Sequence record: NC_031103.1
Origin: Escherichia phage vB_EcoM-UFV13
Reading direction: 5' to 3' (one strand)
DNA: 64,000 nt
The position numbers and the translations under genes were made by a program. The notes under the pieces are model-generated. The model saw nothing but the letters and a program-made list of their open reading frames with translations, did no database searches and was not told where the DNA came from. Positions 5,153-50,726 of the stretch are shown piece after piece. Positions within the stretch are counted from its first letter, which is position 1. Every line of letters starts with the position of its first letter.

Positions 5153-5572
5153 TTATTCCTTAAAATGTGCTTTCAACATCTGATACAAGGACCATGCCTG
5201 TTCATTATTTTCAATAGTAATTTTCATTACCGGGAATTCTGTGAAATCTTCTATCTGTTCTTGCTCTTCCTGCTCTTGTTCTTCAGCAGCCTGATATGGA
5301 TTTCCCACTTCATCAAAAAATTCGGCTTCGTTAGTAGAGAGCCAGATAAAGTTTTCGTCAAGGATATCACCATGTGTTGCATATCCAATTGTGCCAGTAA
5401 ATGACATAATTTTAGTAGGACGCCCAAGATGGTCAACATCTAAAATTTTAAAAGGATGCATACCTAAACGTCGTGCATAAATTCCGTTATCAGTATGGTC
5501 CTTGATAAAAGCTTCTTGAGCTTGTTTATTTTTAAATTGATACCATTTATTAACTTCAAATCTAATAGCCAT
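5153..5572 (-). CDS. hypothetical protein with acidic EQ-repeat
   Basis: 139-aa ORF; size and position would fit T4 goF but sequence not recognised. Confidence 0.5.
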
Positions 5573-5787
5573 TAATAAATTTCCTTCCAGTAAGTTGTAC
5601 CGTCTTCAGTGATTTCACGGAATACACCATAAATCGGTTGTTTATCACCAACCTTTTCATACACATAAACCGAAGTCAAGTGAGTAAACTTAACGGTATG
5701 CTCCTTTTGAACCACTACCAAATCTGGATCGAATAATACATCTTCAAATTCGTCATTAGTGCAATTCTGAACAATTTTGCGTTTCAT
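5572..5787 (-). CDS. hypothetical protein (71 aa)
   Basis: Size and position would fit T4 cef; sequence not recognised. Confidence 0.45.
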
Positions 5788-5800
5788 TACAATTTCCTCA

Positions 5801-6070
5801 TTAATTAAACAGTGGAGCGATGCGTTTCAGAAGAGTAGCAGCACCTTTAGCGAATTTTACATCATGAAAAACAGTTTCTTCTTCCGTTACAACACGAGCT
5901 TTAATGTTTTCACAATCCCAATTTTTACGAACAATCTTCAAAAGCTGCAGTAAATCTTTACATTCAGCAATATCGATAACACATCCACGAGAATCTTCCA
6001 TTATCGCACGATAACCGTAAGCCATACCATAATCGTTGAAAGATTGTTCGATGATAATTAAGTTTTCCAT
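5801..6070 (-). CDS. hypothetical protein
   Basis: Track ORF begins at TTG (6082); ATG at 6070 is preceded by GGAG. Confidence 0.5.
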   Translation of the reverse strand: MENLIIIEQSFNDYGMAYGYRAIMEDSRGCVIDIAECKDLLQLLKIVRKNWDCENIKARVVTEEETVFHDVKFAKGAATLLKRIAPLFN

Positions 6071-6094
6071 TTTATTCTCCAAGTTGTTTTCTAT

Positions 6095-6137
6095 ATCAGT
6101 AGTTGATATTGATATAGTACCATAATCAACTACTGAT
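6095..6137. repeat. 13-bp inverted repeat flanking a promoter -10 element
   Basis: atcagtagttgat / atcaactactgat separated by 17 nt containing TACTAT. Confidence 0.6.
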
Positions 6138-6167
6138 GTATATAGTTTTATGAAAAAATTTTAAACT

Positions 6168-6656
6168 TTATGCATAGAGAGCATTGCTATAGTGTTTAAT
6201 CCAACTTTCAGGAATGACTTTATATGTTCCTAAAAATACCACGTTGTACAACTTAACACCATCTTCTACCCATTGATCTGTAATGTATCCACACATAGCG
6301 CGAGTATAAGCAGCCTTTCCATCATCTTTGATAAATTTAAATTCGCAAGGAGCAATGAACTTAATAGCTTGACCGAGTTTCCACTTAAAGTCTACACCTA
6401 CATGTGAAGTATCAATCGTTTCAATTCCTTTAGCAGGAACAGCTTTCAAAAACGCAGATTCAAGAAATTTCGCACGAACATAGCCAAACTGAGGTTTAGA
6501 CTTTCCATCTTTAGGAATGATACGCACTTTTACTTCAGAATCTTCATCTTTAACGCCATGTTTAAGCTGAATGCTTACAATTTCAACCAATTTTCCTGCT
6601 GCTTTAGAGCGGGATTTATCAGATACACGAGCTAATTCACCAATATTAATAATCAT
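6168..6656 (-). CDS. hypothetical protein (T4 motB size/position)
   Basis: 162-aa ORF; C-terminal domain shared with the next ORF. Confidence 0.5.
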   Translation of the reverse strand: MIINIGELARVSDKSRSKAAGKLVEIVSIQLKHGVKDEDSEVKVRIIPKDGKSKPQFGYVRAKFLESAFLKAVPAKGIETIDTSHVGVDFKWKLGQAIKFIAPCEFKFIKDDGKAAYTRAMCGYITDQWVEDGVKLYNVVFLGTYKVIPESWIKHYSNALYA

Positions 6657-7796: not shown

Positions 7797-7826
7797 ATAA
7801 TACCACAACTAACCGAGGAAGTAAAC
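7797..7826 (-). promoter_or_regulatory. early promoter
   Basis: GTTTAC-18-TATTAT. Confidence 0.5.
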
Positions 7827-7832
7827 AACTTT

Positions 7833-8516
7833 TTATCGTTTTGTTGGAAGAGACAGAGGATCGCACTCTTCCTCTGACGGAGCATCTTCAAGACCCATAG
7901 CATATCGCAAAGCATACTTCATCATCAGAATATCTTTCGCACAGTCATGAATAGAATCATGCGCAACGAATCCATCCAATGTTCCTTTTGGAAGAGGACA
8001 TGTGGTCATATCACGAACGAGCAGAAGTGCTTCAATTCTGGTACGAATATCACGCTGATTCCAGAATTTACATGGTTCTAACTTAAATGTGTCAAGTTCA
8101 TTCTCAGAAACGCCATTAAAACGTTGAATATCGCGAATGAGATCGACTAAAATTGGAAAATCAAACGACATTCCACGGCACCAGCCTTGAGATTTCCAAG
8201 GATCGATGTTATGCGCATTGATGTAATCATTAAATTTTACAATACCATCGATAGTGCTTACATCTTCATCGGATGGTGCAATATTTTTTCTAGCTTCAGG
8301 GGATTGATTCTTCCACCATTCGATAGTGCTTTTAGTAAAAAGACGGTGTCCTTTTTGGCTTTTTAAATCAAATTTGATTTTAATGCCGCGTGAAACTAAT
8401 TCATCAAATGATTCAACGACTTCTGGATTAGGGTCAAAAGCAATTACAGCCAAATCAATAACAGCTGCTTTTTCACCACTTCCCATTGTTTCAAAATCTA
8501 TAATAAAATCAAACAT
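7833..8516 (-). CDS. dexA: exonuclease A (DnaQ-like 3'-5' exonuclease)
   Basis: 227 aa; DFETMG Exo I motif; size and position as T4 dexA. Confidence 0.8.
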   Translation of the reverse strand: MFDFIIDFETMGSGEKAAVIDLAVIAFDPNPEVVESFDELVSRGIKIKFDLKSQKGHRLFTKSTIEWWKNQSPEARKNIAPSDEDVSTIDGIVKFNDYINAHNIDPWKSQGWCRGMSFDFPILVDLIRDIQRFNGVSENELDTFKLEPCKFWNQRDIRTRIEALLLVRDMTTCPLPKGTLDGFVAHDSIHDCAKDILMMKYALRYAMGLEDAPSEEECDPLSLPTKR

Positions 8517-8773
8517 TAAACTTTCCTCGCTAAATCGCGAATTTGACCTACAGTATAATCTTGAATATAAACTTTATTAATAGGCTCATCCATAAATTTT
8601 GCCATAGATTCAATATCTTTTTGCATCTCTTCAAGACTGTATACTATCTTTAAAGCTTTTTCACGAATAGTTACATTTTCAGGTCCTGGATTTTCTTCAA
8701 TGACAGCTTTAACATTTGTCATAAGAGATTTAAACTGGTACCAACTCAACTCAATCATTAATAATCGCCTCAT
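8516..8773 (-). CDS. hypothetical protein (85 aa), tandem paralog family
   Basis: Shares pattern with next ORF. Confidence 0.5.
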   Translation of the reverse strand: MRRLLMIELSWYQFKSLMTNVKAVIEENPGPENVTIREKALKIVYSLEEMQKDIESMAKFMDEPINKVYIQDYTVGQIRDLARKV

Positions 8774-9011
8774 AAAGATAGCTAATTTCGCCTAAAACGT
8801 AATCATTGATTGTAACAGTTTTCACTTCACCACAAAAGAATTCTAACGCAATTAAATCTCGTTCAATTTCTTCTAATTGAAGCATCAACTTACTAGATTC
8901 AATTTTTACAGTTTCACGATTTTTACCATGAGCAATTTCATAAATTTCGCTAACTTTATCCTGAAGAAGATAAAACTGATCTTTAGTTATTTCCACGAAT
9001 AGCTTCCTCAA
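8751..9011 (-). CDS. hypothetical protein (86 aa), tandem paralog family
   Basis: Paralogous to 8516..8773. Confidence 0.5.
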   Translation of the reverse strand: MRKLFVEITKDQFYLLQDKVSEIYEIAHGKNRETVKIESSKLMLQLEEIERDLIALEFFCGEVKTVTINDYVLGEISYLYEAIIND

Positions 9012-9249: not shown

Positions 9250-10569
9250 TCACACATAAAACACATCATAACGACCACGTGTTACACCAACATAAAGAAG
9301 CTGCTGAGCTAGTTCAGCATCTGCATAATGAATACAAGGCGTATAAATGAAAGCACGGTCTACAGACATACCCTGCGCTTTATGGAATGTTGATGCAGGA
9401 AGTGCTTTCACTTTACTGAACTGTGATTTAGCATCCCAAAAATCACTCCACGGAGCTTTTCCGCCTTTATTCCAGTTCTTATAAGTTTCTGCCGTTTTAC
9501 CTAAAAATAGGTTAAACTTATATAGCTCTTCATCAGATGAAATTATTTTAATCTTTTCGCGATAATATTCATCATCGCCGTAAGTTTCTACTGTTAAATC
9601 CCAATGACGAATTAGATATTCTCCAGAAACACCACGAGCTTTAACAAAGGTTGATGTATACTCTGCTTCTATAATACGAACTAATTGTCCATTATTAAAA
9701 ATAATTTCTGACACAGGCTTTCCATCAATTTTATATGTTTTAATTAATGGTTCCTGCATTACAATAATTTCACCGACAATAAAATCTTTATCAGTTTCAA
9801 AAATCTTTTTACGAATAATATTGTTTAACTTATCAACAGATTTATTCGTAAATGCCATTACACGATTTTCAAACAAATCATCTAGTGATTTGACGATTGA
9901 AAAATAATTTACCATAAAATCGCGTAAAGCGGTATCACCGGTAAATCCACGTACTCCATGACCGTCAACAACTTTATCATAAATCCACTTACCATTACGA
10001 ACGTCAGTAGCTACATCAATAATAGGAGCATTACTGCGTTTAACTTCAGTGAGTTCACACTGATAAAAGTCTTTGTGTGTAAAGAATGGACTGATATAAG
10101 CAGTATTTTCTCCTGGGTCAACAGGTCTAATTTGCTTATTATCACCTATTCCAATTATAGTACACCACGGCGGGATAGTTGAAAGCAGAATTTTAAATAG
10201 CTTTCTATCATACATTGACACTTCGTCGCAGATTAATACTCTGCATTTAGCCAAATCCGGTACTTCTTTTTGCTCAAAAAGAACGTTTTCTTCATATGTT
10301 ACTGGGTTAATTTTAAGAATACTATGAATAGTACTCGCTTCTTTCCCAGATAGTTTTGAAAGAATCTTTTTAGCTGCATGAGTAGGAGCCGCTAAAATAA
10401 TACCAGTTTCACCTGTAGATATTAGAGCTTCAATGATGAACTTAGTAAGAGTAGTCTTACCAGTACCAGCAGGTCCATTAATAGTTACATGGTGTTTCTT
10501 TTCTTTGATAGCCTTCATAACAATGTTAAAGGCATTTTTCTGGCCTTCGGTCAAATCATCAAATGTCAT
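9250..10569 (-). CDS. dda: Dda DNA helicase (SF1B)
   Basis: 439 aa; essentially the T4 Dda sequence as recalled; Walker A GPAGTGKT. Confidence 0.95.
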   Translation of the reverse strand: MTFDDLTEGQKNAFNIVMKAIKEKKHHVTINGPAGTGKTTLTKFIIEALISTGETGIILAAPTHAAKKILSKLSGKEASTIHSILKINPVTYEENVLFEQKEVPDLAKCRVLICDEVSMYDRKLFKILLSTIPPWCTIIGIGDNKQIRPVDPGENTAYISPFFTHKDFYQCELTEVKRSNAPIIDVATDVRNGKWIYDKVVDGHGVRGFTGDTALRDFMVNYFSIVKSLDDLFENRVMAFTNKSVDKLNNIIRKKIFETDKDFIVGEIIVMQEPLIKTYKIDGKPVSEIIFNNGQLVRIIEAEYTSTFVKARGVSGEYLIRHWDLTVETYGDDEYYREKIKIISSDEELYKFNLFLGKTAETYKNWNKGGKAPWSDFWDAKSQFSKVKALPASTFHKAQGMSVDRAFIYTPCIHYADAELAQQLLYVGVTRGRYDVFYV

Positions 10570-44108: not shown

Positions 44109-44279
44109 TTAATTTCGCAATTTATTAAGTTCTTCATCATCAATCCAGGATTCTAGTCCTGATGGCAGGTCACATTCAATTTCCCAAAGAAGTTCTTCAA
44201 TTTTCTGAAGACGATCTAGTTCTTCGGCTGGAATAGTAACCATTGACGGAGCTCGTGATACATTAATATCGTAAATCAT
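44109..44279 (-). CDS. hypothetical small protein
   Basis: 56 aa hand-translated; coordinates approximate. Confidence 0.35.
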   Translation of the reverse strand: MIYDINVSRAPSMVTIPAEELDRLQKIEELLWEIECDLPSGLESWIDDEELNKLRN

Positions 44280-44281
44280 AT

Positions 44282-44497
44282 TTACCCCAATTTAACCATA
44301 CAATCGCCGTATTTCCACTTAGAAATAGACTTTTCACCATTAGAATAATAAACTTCGAGTTTAGCACGATTATTTTTAATTTGAATAACCTTGGCTGTCA
44401 TCAAAGTTCCATACCCATAATAAACTGCAACTTCATCACCTACATATACCGTGCTTCCGCGGTAATCATGAATATAGTCAGTTCCTTCGAGCATCAT
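44282..44497 (-). CDS. hypothetical small protein
   Basis: 71-aa ORF. Confidence 0.5.
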   Translation of the reverse strand: MMLEGTDYIHDYRGSTVYVGDEVAVYYGYGTLMTAKVIQIKNNRAKLEVYYSNGEKSISKWKYGDCMVKLG

Positions 44498-45016: not shown

Positions 45017-45305
45017 ATCGGTGTTTACAATGGCGACATTTATAACGAAGATTATTAGTCTGCCAATGGACTAATTGCACCTGTTCAGTACCGCATTCAG
45101 GACAATTAGGAACGTTTTTAGAAGCTCTTTCACGTCGCTCAACCATAACCATAATAGCGTCCCAGGCTGGCGGTTTAAAATCTAAATCGTCACAACCATG
45201 AATCTTTCCACGCATTTCCAAATCGTCTTCTTCACCAGCCATAATAATTTTAATTAGACTAGAATTACTTGAAGCTGCAATGTCTTCTAATAAACGCTTT
45301 TTCAT
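44988..45305 (-). CDS. zinc-ribbon protein
   Basis: CPECG...CRHCKHRF; start uncertain. Confidence 0.45.
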
Positions 45306-46231
45306 TTCAATACCTCAATAGCATTACGTAAACCATTTGCTTTGGCAGTTAAAGTCTTAAGAACTTCAGTTTGCTCTTCAATCTGTTTTTCAACTTCAAT
45401 CAAACGGGCATTGAGATATTCACGTTCTTCACTCAGATTATCAACCTTTTCTACTTTAGGCTCTTTTACAACTGTCTTATATGTATTAGGGTTCTTCAGT
45501 TTAATTAGAATGCGTGAACTGTATAACATTAAACCATTATCTTCGGTTTCGTCATACATTTCCACTACGTCCATGATTTTTAACATCATGCGGAGTTTAT
45601 AAGACAACGAACGAATAGTTTTGTTGTGCTTATTAATTTCTTTAGCTGTCATGGTGCCAAGATTACGTGAGTAATAATAAGGAACCTGGATATTAATTAA
45701 TACTGATGAACCACCTGGCTTGTGTGTTACTTCATCAGCAATAACCCAGTCCTTAACATGAACTGTATTTGTACGGTCATCGCCCGCGGTAAATAGTTTA
45801 CGAGCATGCTTAAAAAGCATATTCACTTGGTCATTGAATTGACAAGCGAACTTATCAGCAAATTTAGTTTCAGGAATGGTAGATAACCAATCAGCCAAAT
45901 GGGTCTTTTTAACATCGTTAACAATAGTAAATTCAACCAAATCGGTTATAGATGTCGCAGATTTAATGAAGCTCGGCTTCATAAAGTTTTCAATGTTATC
46001 ACGAGCTACAGTAGAAGATAACATACGAGAACGTTTAAACCATTCAAGCAAATTGCCTACCGAATAAGAATAAGCGTTTTGAGTATCTTTACAGATATGA
46101 TTTTCCTGGCCAACATATTGAAGAAAATCACGAAGAATATTATTGATTACTGCTCTGTGTCCGATTTGATAATTACGGTGTTTAGTAATAAGACTGTCAA
46201 AATAATCAATATAATGCTTACGAGTTTTCAT
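45302..46231 (-). CDS. coiled-coil-tailed protein, paralog family member A
   Basis: 309 aa; shared internal motif and C-terminal heptad-repeat tail. Confidence 0.55.
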   Translation of the reverse strand: MKTRKHYIDYFDSLITKHRNYQIGHRAVINNILRDFLQYVGQENHICKDTQNAYSYSVGNLLEWFKRSRMLSSTVARDNIENFMKPSFIKSATSITDLVEFTIVNDVKKTHLADWLSTIPETKFADKFACQFNDQVNMLFKHARKLFTAGDDRTNTVHVKDWVIADEVTHKPGGSSVLINIQVPYYYSRNLGTMTAKEINKHNKTIRSLSYKLRMMLKIMDVVEMYDETEDNGLMLYSSRILIKLKNPNTYKTVVKEPKVEKVDNLSEEREYLNARLIEVEKQIEEQTEVLKTLTAKANGLRNAIEVLK

Positions 46232-46283
46232 GTTCTTCTCACTTGGTTAATGATTTATACTCCGAGCCATCCTTGGCTTTAAA

Positions 46284-47285
46284 TTACTTAATTAACTGTA
46301 AAGCTTGTTCAAGACGATCCAAGCGATTGACAGATTCTTCCCAAATCTTTTTAGCCTGCTCATATTCTTTCTGCGCTTTATTAGAAATTTCTAGAACTTC
46401 TTTATAAGCTTTTTCTAGTGCAATAACTTCTGGACGAATTTCTGCCGGTTCAGGCGAATCATCAAGATTATCCATTAGTTCCTCAAGGGTAGTTTCTTCT
46501 TTAGGAGTATTCACAATTTCCTCACATTTTTGTTGATAAATTTCTTTATCAGTAGGTGAATAAGCACATTTCACTTCACGAAGACTAATTACAATTTTAT
46601 ATCCTTCCCATCCGCATATATTCTTAAAAGGATATGTATGAATATTTTCTACTGTTTCCATACAAAGTAATGCAGTCTCTAACTGACGAGTTATAGTGCT
46701 AGCAATTGAGAAAAATTTATTAATATTCTTTTGGTTAGTTTCTGGTGTAAAAAATCCATAATTCACAAAAATAGCTACTTTATTTTTATCAAGCTCATAT
46801 TCTTTTACGATAATCATATCAGAAGCCAAAGGATGAATTTGACGATAATCGCCATAACATAATTTAGAAGCTGATTTTAGAATTTGTCCTTTGAAAAGTC
46901 TGAAATTACTAATCCAACGACGAGTAAAAATATTCTCAGGGTCTTCTTTATTATTAAGATGATAAGAATTAACATCACCGAACCAATTATATCCTACTAC
47001 ATCTTTAGTTCGTTTAATTTCTTTCCCAAAATTACCAAGAATATCCCGATTAACCAAATATGAAAGAAGACGAGACTCTTTAAAGGTTTTCTTGATAACA
47101 TCTTTATCTACACGGCTAGAAATTTTACGAATTTCATGAATAAATTTAGCAGAAGAAACAATACTTGCATCAACACTATTGAGCCATTGATTGATAATAG
47201 AAAGAACGATATTTTGACCAAACATCGGTATAGCTTTATCATCAATAACGCTATTGAATGATTTGATATATTCGGTACGAGTCAT
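46284..47285 (-). CDS. coiled-coil-tailed protein, paralog family member B
   Basis: ATG at 47285 preceded by GAGGAG; track start is TTG inside promoter. Confidence 0.55.
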   Translation of the reverse strand: MTRTEYIKSFNSVIDDKAIPMFGQNIVLSIINQWLNSVDASIVSSAKFIHEIRKISSRVDKDVIKKTFKESRLLSYLVNRDILGNFGKEIKRTKDVVGYNWFGDVNSYHLNNKEDPENIFTRRWISNFRLFKGQILKSASKLCYGDYRQIHPLASDMIIVKEYELDKNKVAIFVNYGFFTPETNQKNINKFFSIASTITRQLETALLCMETVENIHTYPFKNICGWEGYKIVISLREVKCAYSPTDKEIYQQKCEEIVNTPKEETTLEELMDNLDDSPEPAEIRPEVIALEKAYKEVLEISNKAQKEYEQAKKIWEESVNRLDRLEQALQLIK

Positions 47286-47313
47286 AATAATCTCCTCAGT
47301 AGAAAGTAAGAAC

Positions 47314-47343
47314 ATTATACCACATCCTTGTGGCAAAGTAAAC
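47314..47343 (-). promoter_or_regulatory. early promoter
   Basis: GTTTAC-18-TATAAT; near-identical to promoter at 2418-2447. Confidence 0.6.
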
Positions 47344-48368
47344 TAGTTCAGTGCATTTAGTGCATTGTTCAGTTTAGAACGTTGCTTCGTAAGATTTTTG
47401 ACTTTTTCTTGAGCTTTTTCCAACATCTTTTCAGCTTCTAGCACTTCATTAGTTGCTTTAACGAGTTCATCATCTACTGCCTTGATAGACTTCTCAATCG
47501 CATCTGCATGCCATTTTTCAACAGGTTTAAGACTCGGATTTTCAATAGGAAGAAAATTCACTTTATTGAATTTCCATGCATCTTTATTACCTGAACTATA
47601 CATCCAAAATTTAGGATCGTTTGATAAGTAATTGGATAAATTTAAATTTAAGTTATCTTGTACTTCCTGCTTTTTCTCTTGCGGGACTTCGTCCTTTCTC
47701 AAAAAATCATATTTAAATGAAACAACCATATCAAGTTCATATGTTGTTGTGTCTAATTTAAATCGTTCAAAACGAGGTAAAATCTTAGATTGAACAGCGG
47801 CAACAACATCCATATACTTAAATGCTTCTGTCAACTGTGATTTAAGGCATTCACAAATTGAAAGAGAATTTTTAGTATTAGGCTTAAAGCTAATTCGCGC
47901 AGTTCTATTATTTTCCTTTAATGGTCTTACTTCCATCTGAAGAGTATAACCATCAAATTTAAGATTCTTTAAGTTAATATCAGAACCTTTTAATCGACTA
48001 GCAGTAGACAAAATTTGCTTTAATTGTCTACGGAACAGAGCAATAAATCTCCATTCAATACGATAATGATTTGGATTGAAAAATCCAGATGATAAATCGA
48101 CCTTACTTTGACCAACGCCTTGAACAAATAGAGGATTTTTATAATCAATAGTTTTACAGAAATCGGTGAGCTGCTCACGAGCAGTCATTTGTGTAATATA
48201 TCCCGCTTTACTAAAATGACGTAACCATTCACTGCTATTCATATATTTAAAGTGAATATCACGATTAACTTTATCAGGGTCTAAATTATTTTGGCACAAA
48301 AATGTCATAACATCACGAGTATAGCTGGCATTACGAACCATATCTTCAATTTGAGAACGAGTTTTCAT
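47343..48368 (-). CDS. coiled-coil-tailed protein, paralog family member C
   Basis: 341 aa. Confidence 0.55.
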   Translation of the reverse strand: MKTRSQIEDMVRNASYTRDVMTFLCQNNLDPDKVNRDIHFKYMNSSEWLRHFSKAGYITQMTAREQLTDFCKTIDYKNPLFVQGVGQSKVDLSSGFFNPNHYRIEWRFIALFRRQLKQILSTASRLKGSDINLKNLKFDGYTLQMEVRPLKENNRTARISFKPNTKNSLSICECLKSQLTEAFKYMDVVAAVQSKILPRFERFKLDTTTYELDMVVSFKYDFLRKDEVPQEKKQEVQDNLNLNLSNYLSNDPKFWMYSSGNKDAWKFNKVNFLPIENPSLKPVEKWHADAIEKSIKAVDDELVKATNEVLEAEKMLEKAQEKVKNLTKQRSKLNNALNALN

Positions 48369-48376
48369 GGTGTTCC

Positions 48377-49285
48377 TTAAGATTTAAGTAAATCAACAAT
48401 TTTAATTAATTTTTCACGCTCAGATTTAGCTTTACTACTCAATCCAGATAGTCTGAAAATTTCATCGTCATACTGTTGAATAGAAATATTCAGCTCTTCA
48501 ATTTGCTTATTAAAATAATCAATTTGTTCAGAATGTTTTTCATTACTACGAACTGGTACAGGTTTTGTAGGCAATTTAGTTGAACTGGATTCATCCGGGC
48601 GATAAATTAAAATACAACTTGAACCAATAGGGCATTTTGCACCAGACACATATTCTAATGTTCCAGCTTCTTTTAAAATTTCAAAAGCTAAACAGAGATG
48701 ATGACCCATATTGGCATAATCTGTAGAGTGAGCTCTGACGTAATAATCATCTCCACGAGTGCTAAATTTAAAGCATTTAAGGTCTTCTGTATTATTAGTT
48801 TTAAAAATCATTTGTTTATCTAGACCTTTAGCTAATCGAGCGCCTAATGCTAATAATCGTCGTTGATTTTCCCACAAATCCGCAATCATTTGGTCAAATG
48901 ATAATTTCGGCATTAGTCGACCATAAAGGTCGTATCCTTTATTATAATTGCGAAGGATTTCACTCGCGTTAATACGAGACAATGCTCCAATTTTATTAAG
49001 GGCTTTCATAATGCGATTAGATAAACTCATTCCAGATCCGTTTGTTCGCTGTAAATGTTTTTCTAATCCAAATCCAATATCAACTTTAAACTTATCTAAA
49101 ATTTCGGCATGAACATCTTTATCAATAACATTCAAATCCAAAGTTGGGTTAAATCTATGAAAAAATTTATCTGGCTCTCCACGACGAAGTACAGTCCATT
49201 CATTCAATTTTTTATTAACTAAAGATTTAATTACTGCATTGACATTATTAATTACTACTGACATATTTTCCTCACTCAATTTCAA
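48377..49285 (-). CDS. coiled-coil-tailed protein, paralog family member D
   Basis: 302 aa. Confidence 0.55.
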   Translation of the reverse strand: MKLSEENMSVVINNVNAVIKSLVNKKLNEWTVLRRGEPDKFFHRFNPTLDLNVIDKDVHAEILDKFKVDIGFGLEKHLQRTNGSGMSLSNRIMKALNKIGALSRINASEILRNYNKGYDLYGRLMPKLSFDQMIADLWENQRRLLALGARLAKGLDKQMIFKTNNTEDLKCFKFSTRGDDYYVRAHSTDYANMGHHLCLAFEILKEAGTLEYVSGAKCPIGSSCILIYRPDESSSTKLPTKPVPVRSNEKHSEQIDYFNKQIEELNISIQQYDDEIFRLSGLSSKAKSEREKLIKIVDLLKS

Positions 49286-49734: not shown

Positions 49735-50262
49735 TTATGCGAGTACCGTCTTTAACCGTTCTTCAAACTTCCGAAGAGTATTTTGGCGTTCAGCTCTTTG
49801 CTTTTTGTAAGTTTCAATACGCTCTGAAATGAGAGTGTATCGTTCATTTACTGATTCTTTCATAAAATCAGGAATTTCACGAGAAGCTTTAATCTCATCA
49901 AATTTATCAATAACAGCTTGCTCTTCAGCAATTAAGTTATCATACATCAAAATATCTTTCTTGATGAACTCAATATCTTCTTGAGTTACACGAGATAATT
50001 TAGATGCTTTATCCTTTTTGTACTGTTCATTAGTATCACGAGACCAGTGTAATGTACGATTTTTATTCGTATTTTTGTAAATTTCTACAATACCAATCTC
50101 ATCGATAATAACGATCCAATTCCAACGGGATTTGTAAATTTGTCCTCCATCAACCGTGATTTCACCTCCGATTGAGATGTCATTAAAGAACTTGCTTTGT
50201 GCTTCTGATTTAAATTTACCATCGTTGTAATTTACCAGGTTGAAAATATCTTTAGCGTTCAT
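49735..50262 (-). CDS. hypothetical protein with C-terminal coiled coil
   Basis: ATG at 50262 after conserved promoter-leader cassette. Confidence 0.5.
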   Translation of the reverse strand: MNAKDIFNLVNYNDGKFKSEAQSKFFNDISIGGEITVDGGQIYKSRWNWIVIIDEIGIVEIYKNTNKNRTLHWSRDTNEQYKKDKASKLSRVTQEDIEFIKKDILMYDNLIAEEQAVIDKFDEIKASREIPDFMKESVNERYTLISERIETYKKQRAERQNTLRKFEERLKTVLA

Positions 50263-50322: not shown

Positions 50323-50625
50323 CTAAAAGAAACTTCTTTCACAATTTTTTCCACTGAACCATGCGCTCACTGCTTTCTTAGTCTCAGGAGCAGTGTTATC
50401 CATAAACCACTCAAAGGCAGCCTTTTTATGATTCTGGAGGGCTTCTCGGGCTTTAATCTGCTCACGGTCTATTAACACTAACATATGAGCCTTTCTTGTC
50501 ACCAAGGGCTTCTTATGATTCTTGGAGTATTCCCAGTCATTTGTCCAACGCATTGTCGTTGCGAACTGAAATACTGCGTCTTTAATTTTAGTTTCATAAA
50601 TTTCACGAGCCTTTGAGTATAACAT
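50323..50625 (-). CDS. hypothetical protein
   Basis: Track ORF 50323..50637 has N in codon 4; ATG at 50625 preceded by GGAGG. Confidence 0.45.
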   Translation of the reverse strand: MLYSKAREIYETKIKDAVFQFATTMRWTNDWEYSKNHKKPLVTRKAHMLVLIDREQIKAREALQNHKKAAFEWFMDNTAPETKKAVSAWFSGKNCERSFF

Positions 50626-50726
50626 CANTACCTCCATTNACCAGTTTAATTCTANTCATCTTTTTNATGGCAGTCCATATAATCTATTTCTGAACTGCCT
50701 TTTTGTCATAGAAGTCCTCTTATGAA

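Follow-up and report, generated by a model that had tools for sequence, protein, structure and literature searches.

The tandem genes nrdC.3 to nrdC.6 of T4-like phages encode one paralogous protein family with a candidate role in counter-defence

Genes and features at the locus

We analysed a 64,000-nucleotide stretch of the genome of Escherichia phage vB_EcoM-UFV13 (NC_031103.1; this whole stretch is referred to as the window), focusing on an array of four genes that encode proteins of about 300 amino acids (aa). A sequence-only reading of this DNA had placed four consecutive genes in tandem at 45302-49285, and we indeed find there four consecutive minus-strand open reading frames (ORFs), which are the orthologs of the T4 genes nrdC.3, nrdC.4, nrdC.5 and nrdC.6 (Table 1). 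The outer end of that interval holds in part, as position 49285 is the TTG of the longest nrdC.6 ORF, whereas its homologs begin at the internal ATG. Orthology was assigned through the T4 reference annotation and BLASTP, with identities to the T4 proteins of 60.6% for NrdC.3, 96% for NrdC.4, 94% for NrdC.5 and, across the first 259 aa, 96% for NrdC.6. The source phage is a T4-like Tequatrovirus. Over the 3,984 bases of the four-gene array, its identity to Escherichia phage vB-Eco-KMB23 is 97.5%, and coverage of the array reaches at least 80% in 461 phage records. Every gene between 42.6 and 52.8 kb of the window lies on the minus strand.

We find that NrdC.3, NrdC.4, NrdC.5 and NrdC.6 are true paralogs, which form one protein family and derive from ancient tandem duplications. 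The genes themselves were already known, and for one of them, nrdC.5, a function has been published; the new element is that three database families (NrdC.3 with NrdC.4, NrdC.5, and NrdC.6) are united in a single superfamily that is specific to the Straboviridae.

Table 1. Genes, protein motifs, tails and the promoter match of the nrdC.3-nrdC.6 array, in window coordinates
Feature	Window position	Strand	Details
nrdC.3 ortholog	45302..46231	-	ORF of 309 aa
nrdC.4 ortholog	46284..47285	-	333 aa from ATG; longest ORF begins at TTG 47336
nrdC.5 ortholog	47343..48368	-	ORF of 341 aa
nrdC.6 ortholog	48377..49264	-	295 aa from ATG; longest ORF extends to TTG 49285
Central motif, NrdC.3	45776..45838	-	aa 132-152, FNDQVNMLFKHARKLFTAGDD
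Central motif, NrdC.4	46845..46913	-	aa 125-147
Central motif, NrdC.5	47979..48047	-	aa 108-130
Central motif, NrdC.6	48818..48880	-	aa 129-149
Second conserved motif, NrdC.3	45983..46051	-	aa 61-83, LLEWFKRSRMLSSTVARDNIENF
Second conserved motif, NrdC.4	47028..47096	-	aa 64-86
Second conserved motif, NrdC.5	48159..48227	-	aa 48-70
Second conserved motif, NrdC.6	48944..49012	-	aa 85-107, IMKALNKIGALSRINASEILRNY
Tail, NrdC.3	45305..45430	-	aa 268-309, heptad-patterned helical
Tail, NrdC.4	46287..46433	-	aa 285-333, heptad-patterned helical
Tail, NrdC.5	47346..47522	-	aa 283-341; modelled as a single helix, 285-340, the only confident part of the model
Tail, NrdC.6	48380..48547	-	aa 240-295; modelled as two helices, 242-271 and 276-294
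Sigma-70 / T4-early-like promoter match	47314..47342	-	TTTACT, 17 nucleotides, TATAAT, with TG; consensus match only

Common ancestry of the four proteins

Upon pairwise comparison with BLASTP, only NrdC.3 and NrdC.4 were significantly similar (27% over 160 aa, E-value 7e-7), and the other five pairs were non-significant. The databases likewise split the proteins. Among the PHROGs profiles, NrdC.3 and NrdC.4 match phrog_1435 (E-values 1.7e-114 and 6.6e-169, respectively), NrdC.5 is phrog_2351 and NrdC.6 matches phrog_2257 (E-value 1.3e-152). In Pfam, close homologs of NrdC.3 carry PF26897, which covers NrdC.3 and NrdC.4, homologs of NrdC.6 carry PF26899 (Phage_T4_Y05B), and NrdC.5 matches DUF7235 (PF23882, the NrdC.5 family) over its full length with 410 bits (E-value 8.5e-123; gathering cut-off 30 bits). 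A Pfam profile search with PF23882 gave no hit for the other three proteins; a distant protein with a head resembling those of NrdC.3 and NrdC.4 (P0219) passes the same profile through its tail alone, with 48 bits.

Because BLASTP links one pair only and the databases divide the families, we built family alignments from close homologs and compared them as profiles. NrdC.3 and NrdC.4, which align end to end, were joined by hhalign with a probability of 97% (E-value 1.5e-11), followed by NrdC.4 with NrdC.5 (P 1.5e-4) and NrdC.3 with NrdC.6 (P 2.5e-4), the remaining pairs being weaker. All of these alignments are collinear, with the central motif in register, and the match between NrdC.5 and NrdC.6 is restricted to the tail.

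Iterative searches with profile hidden Markov models (HMMs) were run against all ORFs of the nrdC regions from nine other phages of different genera, after trimming of the last 65 residues, which kept coiled-coil composition from dictating the outcome. A bridge from NrdC.4 to NrdC.6 through a protein of Salmonella phage Manna (Manna_094) was discarded, since that protein is a genuine chimera of an NrdC.6 head and an NrdC.4 tail, and the search was repeated without it. Starting from either NrdC.4 or NrdC.6, the iterations then converge on one set comprising all orthologs of the four proteins, together with proteins of approximately 290-335 aa from the Yersinia phiR1-RT, Klebsiella Roth66, Enterobacter fGh-Ecl04 and Acinetobacter fHyAci03 phages. 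Starting from NrdC.3, they reach NrdC.3, NrdC.4, the bridging proteins (Roth66, and phiR1-RT g087) and two Tequatrovirus nrdC.5 sequences, and halt with NrdC.6 members just above threshold. From NrdC.5 the search stalls just above threshold and does not extend past its own family; its link to the others therefore comes from the other starting points, from the pairwise network and from the leave-one-group-out HMMs. Unrelated ORFs were never included in any of these tail-trimmed iterations.

In a phmmer network of single sequences (E-value < 1e-3), to which approximately 88 unrelated ORFs from these loci were added as decoys, the four proteins belong to a single component of 38 members with zero decoy links, both at full length and with the heads only, that is, after removal of the last 65 residues. 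Furthermore, we built HMMs that left out every sequence with an E-value < 0.01 to the target and searched them against the window ORFs of at least 60 aa (266 in the full-length search). Each protein was recovered, with E-values at full length and for the head only of 1.3e-9 and 1.8e-9 for NrdC.3, 1.7e-12 and 6.8e-11 for NrdC.4, 1e-15 and 2.2e-11 for NrdC.5, and 8.4e-6 and 4.8e-6 for NrdC.6, while the best unrelated window ORF had an E-value of at least 0.04. The sequence-only reading had claimed paralogs generated by duplication and had proposed pairwise and multiple alignment as the check; the network and the leave-one-group-out HMMs join all four proteins, and the similarity goes beyond composition, also when the heads are compared by themselves and without a single decoy being linked.

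Structural comparison independently supports the relationship and adds distant relatives. Searching the AlphaFold2 (AF2) model of NrdC.6 (predicted local distance difference test, pLDDT, 78; predicted template modelling score 0.65) against viral models (BFVD) with Foldseek returned eight uncharacterised proteins of approximately 300-375 aa, at 11-16% identity and E-values from 3e-7 to 6.5e-4, which come from Karamvirus-like, Acinetobacter, Erwinia, Klebsiella, Pectobacterium and Yersinia T4-like phages. One of them, the 335-aa protein of fHyAci03, was also found by the HMM iterations from NrdC.4 and NrdC.6. The NrdC.5 model was left out of the fold search because its alignment was too shallow (pLDDT 42.6).

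Conserved core and heptad-patterned tails

We read conservation from family alignments of 19 and 40 sequences. The shared internal motif that the sequence-only reading had described is present in all four proteins, and it is the best-conserved central block of the 40-sequence alignment. A second conserved motif, absent from that reading, lies nearer the N-terminus (Table 1). In total there are five conservation peaks, namely the first 12 or so residues (M-K-T-R-x-x-Y in NrdC.3, NrdC.4 and NrdC.5), the second motif, the central motif, the helix L..AL..MD.V and the last 12 or so residues, L..A...LK. The core runs from the helix motif h..hh+..+hhS...A...L.NF through the central motif, F..N...hh....+L..G.D+, and two beta strands to the helix L..AL..MD.V and more beta strands, after which come a variable linker and a tail of 42-59 residues. 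The variable parts are the inserts in the core, the linker, whose length differs greatly between members, and a poorly conserved helical stretch at residues ~16-60, which bears out the divergent N-terminal regions that had been claimed.

The well-conserved positions are largely hydrophobic, the exceptions being a glycine, two Arg/Lys positions and N/Q/D in the central motif; in the tail, the well-conserved polar positions of the 40-sequence alignment are Glu and Gln/Arg. None of the polar residues is invariant in this alignment, and hence there is no sign of a catalytic site; the pattern suggests a binding protein rather than an enzyme. Consistently, searches of Pfam, NCBIfam and PADLOC found neither an enzyme signature nor a defence-family signature in the four proteins. 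Among the PADLOC defence models the best E-value was 0.0011 (the BrxC coiled-coil region against the NrdC.4 tail), then 0.026, with none for NrdC.5 and NrdC.6. Matches to PHL, a tyrosine recombinase, BrxC and BrxF were all far below threshold and were dismissed. The proteins are not of the DNA-mimic anti-restriction type (Ocr/Arn) either, as they are not strongly acidic (isoelectric point, pI, 6.5-9.3 for the whole proteins and 8.4-9.4 for the heads).

In the NrdC.6 model, the central motif forms the end of helix 123-132 and the whole of helix 134-144, and is followed by two strands, helix 186-199, two further strands, a disordered linker and the two tail helices. The order of elements is the same in the models of NrdC.5 and NrdC.6, that of NrdC.5 being of low confidence. 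Collinear motifs in the alignments and the same secondary-structure order in these two models place the four proteins in one superfamily. A structural search found no recognisable solved fold that matches the family, and the sequence profile searched against the PDB returned only non-significant coiled-coil chains, matched by the profile's tail.

All four proteins end in a heptad-patterned tail. Using a simple home-made measure of a/d heptad positions compared with shuffled sequences, we obtained scores of 0.8-0.9 (NrdC.3 259-309, NrdC.4 286-333, NrdC.5 283-341, NrdC.6 238-288), where shuffles average approximately 0.6 and 0-1.5% of them reach the observed value. The 40-50 residue heptad tails of the sequence-only reading are thereby recovered at 42-59 residues, with modelled helices in NrdC.5 and NrdC.6. 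An HMM of the tail by itself recovers all four proteins, indicating that the tails are homologous. They are not constant, however, as that reading had it, being as diverged between paralogs (11-29% identity) as the cores (11-28%). The heads are basic (pI 8.4-9.4), whereas the tails are acidic to neutral.

Distribution and copy number across T4-like phages

Among 1.84 billion representative proteins, the superfamily profile finds only 35 representatives at an E-value of at most 1e-3. The new hits are mostly 284-364 aa long and match end to end or nearly so, and the remainder are fragments. Every family member that was traced to its source belongs to a T4-like phage or a T4-like contig, and the named cluster members are Straboviridae; the contig of one anonymous member shows a T4-like gene order.

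When partitioning the phages by genus, we observe that copy number varies from one to four at the same locus, which answers the comparison across T-even genomes that the sequence-only reading had proposed. Tequatrovirus genomes have four copies, one of each gene per genome. At a protein identity of at least 80%, we count 360 records for nrdC.3, 463 for nrdC.4, 494 for nrdC.5 and 500 for nrdC.6, and 292 further records hold more diverged nrdC.3 alleles. Three copies are found in Mosigvirus (nrdC.3-, nrdC.5- and nrdC.6-type) and in Dhakavirus and Gaprivervirus (nrdC.4-, nrdC.5- and nrdC.6-type), and a single copy occupies the locus in Karamvirus, Klebsiella phage Roth66 and an Acinetobacter phage (Lazarusvirus). 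Such variation is as expected of accessory genes.

Yersinia phage phiR1-RT has a second, very divergent member, g098 (328 aa; 7806-8792 of its nrdC region), which adjoins nrdC.10 instead of occupying the usual position next to nrdC. Only late HMM iterations bring it into the family (E-values 5.6e-5 to 7.6e-4), and it is unconnected in the pairwise network.

Age, selection and rearrangements

The duplications predate the split of the Tevenvirinae genera. Identity between paralogs is at most 27%, and the duplications are fixed across genera rather than being recent amplifications. Comparing this phage with T4, the ratio of nonsynonymous to synonymous substitution rates (dN/dS) is 0.35 for nrdC.3, 0.22 for nrdC.4, 0.11 for nrdC.5 and 0.21 for nrdC.6. 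A family in the course of diversifying, as the sequence-only reading described it, is contradicted by the age of the duplications and by the purifying selection on all four genes.

Compared with T4, nrdC.3 has a mosaic structure. Identity is 80-90% in codons 1-60 and 273-309, whereas the centre (codons ~91-270) is 40-57% identical, with a synonymous divergence (dS) of 0.87, and most of this centre is approximately 90% identical to the Mosigvirus allele. In phage records, nrdC.3 falls into discrete identity classes. The divergence of nrdC.3 is mosaic allele replacement and not recent positive selection, and the mosaic suggests that alleles have been exchanged between genera.

Fusions and losses are also found. 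In the nrdC region of Salmonella phage Manna, Manna_094 (5215-6252) joins, in frame, the NrdC.6 head as far as residue ~269 to the linker and tail of NrdC.4 from residue ~257 onwards. Deletion has removed nrdC.5 and the greater part of nrdC.4, leaving this phage with two family members rather than four. In phage ACG-C40 (4317-4728 of the nrdC region), nrdC.6 alone is intact and nrdC.4 is gone; nrdC.5 persists as an N-terminal fragment of 71 aa, directly adjoining the final ~76 codons of nrdC.3. The protein P0219, of Klebsiella phage F48-type phages, combines its head resembling NrdC.3 and NrdC.4 with an NrdC.5-type tail. Two further database proteins are rearranged as well, unless they are assembly artefacts, namely a fusion of NrdC.5(137-264) with NrdC.3(136-309) (P0056) and an NrdC.6 with an internal tandem duplication of ~83 residues in Shigella phage Sf25 (gp220, 378 aa; P0093). 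The junction of this duplication lies at the same ...QIEEL point as a frameshift in the T4 reference nrdC.6, which has a 1-nucleotide deletion relative to the window, an A in GCTGAATATT (~10067-10130 of the T4 NC_000866 nrdC region, corresponding to window 48440-48470). As a result of this deletion, the annotated 275-aa T4 NrdC.6 is frameshifted and lacks the tail, and the intact tail is readable in another frame. The deletion reflects a sequencing error or else a mutation of the laboratory strain and, if real, would be a natural tail-less variant.

Neighbouring features

The promoter match of Table 1 sits between the nrdC.5 stop and the nrdC.4 ATG, just upstream of nrdC.4. In a promoter and terminator scan, promoter matches in the region were not above chance (32, compared with 29.8 in shuffled sequence), and for this reason only this single intergenic site is reported.

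A 19-nucleotide direct repeat, 89% identical, is present at window 46220-46238 and 48357-48375. Its two copies lie at the starts of nrdC.3 and nrdC.5, where they span ATGAAAACTCGT (M-K-T-R) together with the ribosome-binding region; the repeat may be a remnant of common origin or due to chance. At the DNA level, repeats between the paralogs are otherwise limited to short matches that are possibly chance, with nothing beyond this one at the two gene starts.

Downstream of the array in window numbering, nrdC.8 (49735-50262) has a heptad-patterned stretch in its C-terminal 40 residues and is the top match from outside the family, without ever being significant. We rejected it as a fifth member (E-value 0.14 against the family HMM and 0.4 against the tail HMM). 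In nrdC.9 (DUF7203; 50323-50637), an X at translated residue 4 reflects an ambiguous base near 50626-50628. On the other side of the array, at window 44109-44497, there are two small unrelated ORFs (56 and 71 aa) where T4 has 49.3. The slot between 49.2 and nrdC is a variable part of the same island, and the arrangement in Manna is similar.

Discussion

Function is documented for nrdC.5. An evolved T4 deletion mutant is unable to infect ECOR17, or MG1655 carrying the dsr1 of ECOR17, and plasmid-expressed T4 nrdC.5 alone restores infection of Dsr1 cells (Srikant et al., eLife 2022, PMC9391042). Dsr1, which pairs a SIR2 effector with a TPR sensor that also occurs in Avs7, is reported to be triggered by the major capsid protein (PMC12803255). 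The nrdC.1-6 block can be deleted in the laboratory host (PMC9825161). In the literature that we searched, there was nothing functional on nrdC.3, nrdC.4, nrdC.6, DUF7235 or Y05A/B. Shared ancestry with the anti-Dsr1 gene nrdC.5 makes nrdC.3, nrdC.4, nrdC.6 and the single-copy relatives candidate counter-defence genes.

In our assessment the four genes are probably a diversified set of early, dispensable, non-enzymatic counter-defence binding proteins, one of which acts against Dsr1. The NrdC.3-6 proteins would act stoichiometrically, with the head of each paralog binding and blocking a separate immune protein or allele of the host, and the tail serving for self-association or as a second contact. 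Expression of the array is presumably early, as T4 nrdC.5 is described as an early gene, and the proteins would then be present before the late proteins that are sensed; by analogy with DSAD1 and DSR2, the Dsr1 sensor may be bound directly before its late trigger appears. Since one paralog has a demonstrated, specific host target system, the idea that each binds a different target, already put forward in the sequence-only reading, is plausible. Of that earlier interpretation as a whole, paralogy by duplication and the heptad tails stand, whereas the constant tail and active diversification do not.

Several known systems offer comparisons. The closest is T4 NrdC.5 itself (PF23882, anti-Dsr1), of which the nrdC.5 product of the window is the ortholog and with which the other three proteins have a common architecture and ancestry, although unlike it they fall below the PF23882 threshold. 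A functional analogue is DSAD1 of an SPbeta-group phage, which is reported to inhibit DSR2 (PMC10973363, PMC11087589) and so also to counteract a SIR2-domain NADase; the sensor of DSR2 recognises a late structural protein, which makes DSAD1 the model for the proposed blocking of a sensor before its trigger. DSAD1 differs in the host system, DSR2 as opposed to Dsr1, and in the phage group, and the likeness is one of function, no kinship of sequence or fold being claimed. A common neighbourhood or logic connects the array with gp49.2, which inhibits OLD (PMC13096335), with NrdC.1, which inhibits Septu (bioRxiv 10.1101/2025.11.20.689424), with Pin, a Lon inhibitor according to the T4 annotation, and with the dmd-tifA-adfA 'anti-TA island'. 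The logic shared with these T4 accessory genes is that they are dispensable in the laboratory host and that each disables one host system. They are, however, small, unrelated and single-copy, in contrast to four tandem paralogs of approximately 300 aa.

Expansion of accessory genes has parallels elsewhere as well. Poxviruses have multigene host-range paralog families. In T4, tifA undergoes segmental amplification, a gene 'accordion' (PMC9391042). Like accordions and host-range families, nrdC.3-6 are tandem accessory paralogs facing host immunity, with natural expansions and collapses; unlike accordions, their duplications are old and fixed rather than recent amplifications, as the low identity between paralogs and the near lack of DNA-level repeats attest.

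A number of observations weigh against the counter-defence interpretation, or against the family on which it builds. The functional evidence is confined to nrdC.5, with nrdC.3, nrdC.4 and nrdC.6 linked to no defence system; the published NrdC.5 work gives no binding data, and the literature searched holds no molecular mechanism. Purifying selection is strong, with dN/dS below what a fast arms race would predict, and nrdC.4, nrdC.5 and nrdC.6 are highly conserved across hundreds of Tequatrovirus genomes. Basic heads also fit nucleic-acid binding and an indirect action, and the tail of NrdC.6 is modelled by AF2 as an intramolecular hairpin. As regards the family, the profile that retrieved the distant members had been built from all four families together, which introduces a mild circularity in the network and in the leave-one-group-out searches. 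In addition, the AF2 model of NrdC.5 is of low confidence (pLDDT 42.6, from a shallow alignment), so that the structural equivalence of NrdC.5 and NrdC.6 is drawn from sequence profiles and secondary-structure order only.

The alternative that survives best, which we nevertheless judge unlikely, is that these are basic nucleic-acid-binding or regulatory early proteins, that the anti-Dsr1 effect of NrdC.5 is indirect (for example, the trigger being delayed or masked) and that the paralogs are not dedicated immune inhibitors. The pI of the heads and the two conserved Arg/Lys positions would suit such proteins, as would purifying selection and good conservation, and the lack of binding data in the published work leaves room for an indirect effect. 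Set against this, Pfam and NCBIfam give no match to a DNA- or RNA-binding family, no solved fold is matched structurally, the genes are dispensable in the laboratory host and the rescue is specific to a single defence gene.

Slightly less probable still is that the four proteins are subunits of one hetero-oligomeric complex, assembled through their related coiled-coil tails and directed at a single target. A complex would explain why the four genes adjoin one another in the same orientation with little space between them, why their homologous tails differ little in length, and why approximately 460-500 Tequatrovirus records retain each gene once per genome. Yet other genera hold one copy, or three in differing combinations (nrdC.3, nrdC.5 and nrdC.6 in Mosigvirus, and nrdC.4, nrdC.5 and nrdC.6 in Dhakavirus and Gaprivervirus), the viable phages Manna and ACG-C40 have lost members, nrdC.5 on a plasmid rescues infection on Dsr1 cells by itself (PMC9391042) and the annotated T4 reference nrdC.6 lacks a tail through its frameshift.

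Finally, it is very improbable that NrdC.5 and NrdC.6 resemble the other two through convergence or composition (coiled-coil tails and a motif shared by chance), leaving only NrdC.3 and NrdC.4 as true paralogs, as the BLASTP result, the three-way split in PHROGs and Pfam and the tail-only hhalign match of NrdC.5 with NrdC.6 might indicate, because head-only tests still join all four with zero decoy links, head-only leave-one-group-out HMMs recover each protein (E-values 5e-6 to 2e-11), the motifs are collinear in all alignments, the secondary-structure order is the same in the NrdC.5 and NrdC.6 models and the locus is the same in all genera examined.

Returning to the set of counter-defence binding proteins, a bolder version of it can be formulated. 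It is conceivable, if doubtful, that the array is a standing panel of sensor blockers, whose heads are matched to different TPR sensors of the Avs7/Dsr1 type or to SIR2-type effectors. In this view, the sensors are ones that respond to late structural proteins and come fused to a variety of effectors. With similar reserve, new specificities could arise through allele replacement and head-tail recombination between paralogs, the latter being suggested by the nrdC.3 mosaic, the Manna fusion of an NrdC.6 head with an NrdC.4 tail and the mixed head and tail of P0219. If this panel existed, bacterial pattern-recognition receptors of a whole class could be inhibited from one phage fold, which would serve as a general scaffold that can be retargeted.

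Even in T4, the most thoroughly studied phage, nrdC.3, nrdC.4 and nrdC.6 are anonymous genes. They now become specific candidates for counter-defence screens, as do the single-copy relatives in T4-like phages of Klebsiella, Enterobacter, Yersinia and Acinetobacter. The conserved core and the tail are defined as targets for mutational, binding and structural work on NrdC.5. Overall, the array is a natural example of genes that expanded long ago in the face of host immunity, became fixed and have collapsed again in some phages, which bears on host-range prediction for therapeutic T4-like phages.

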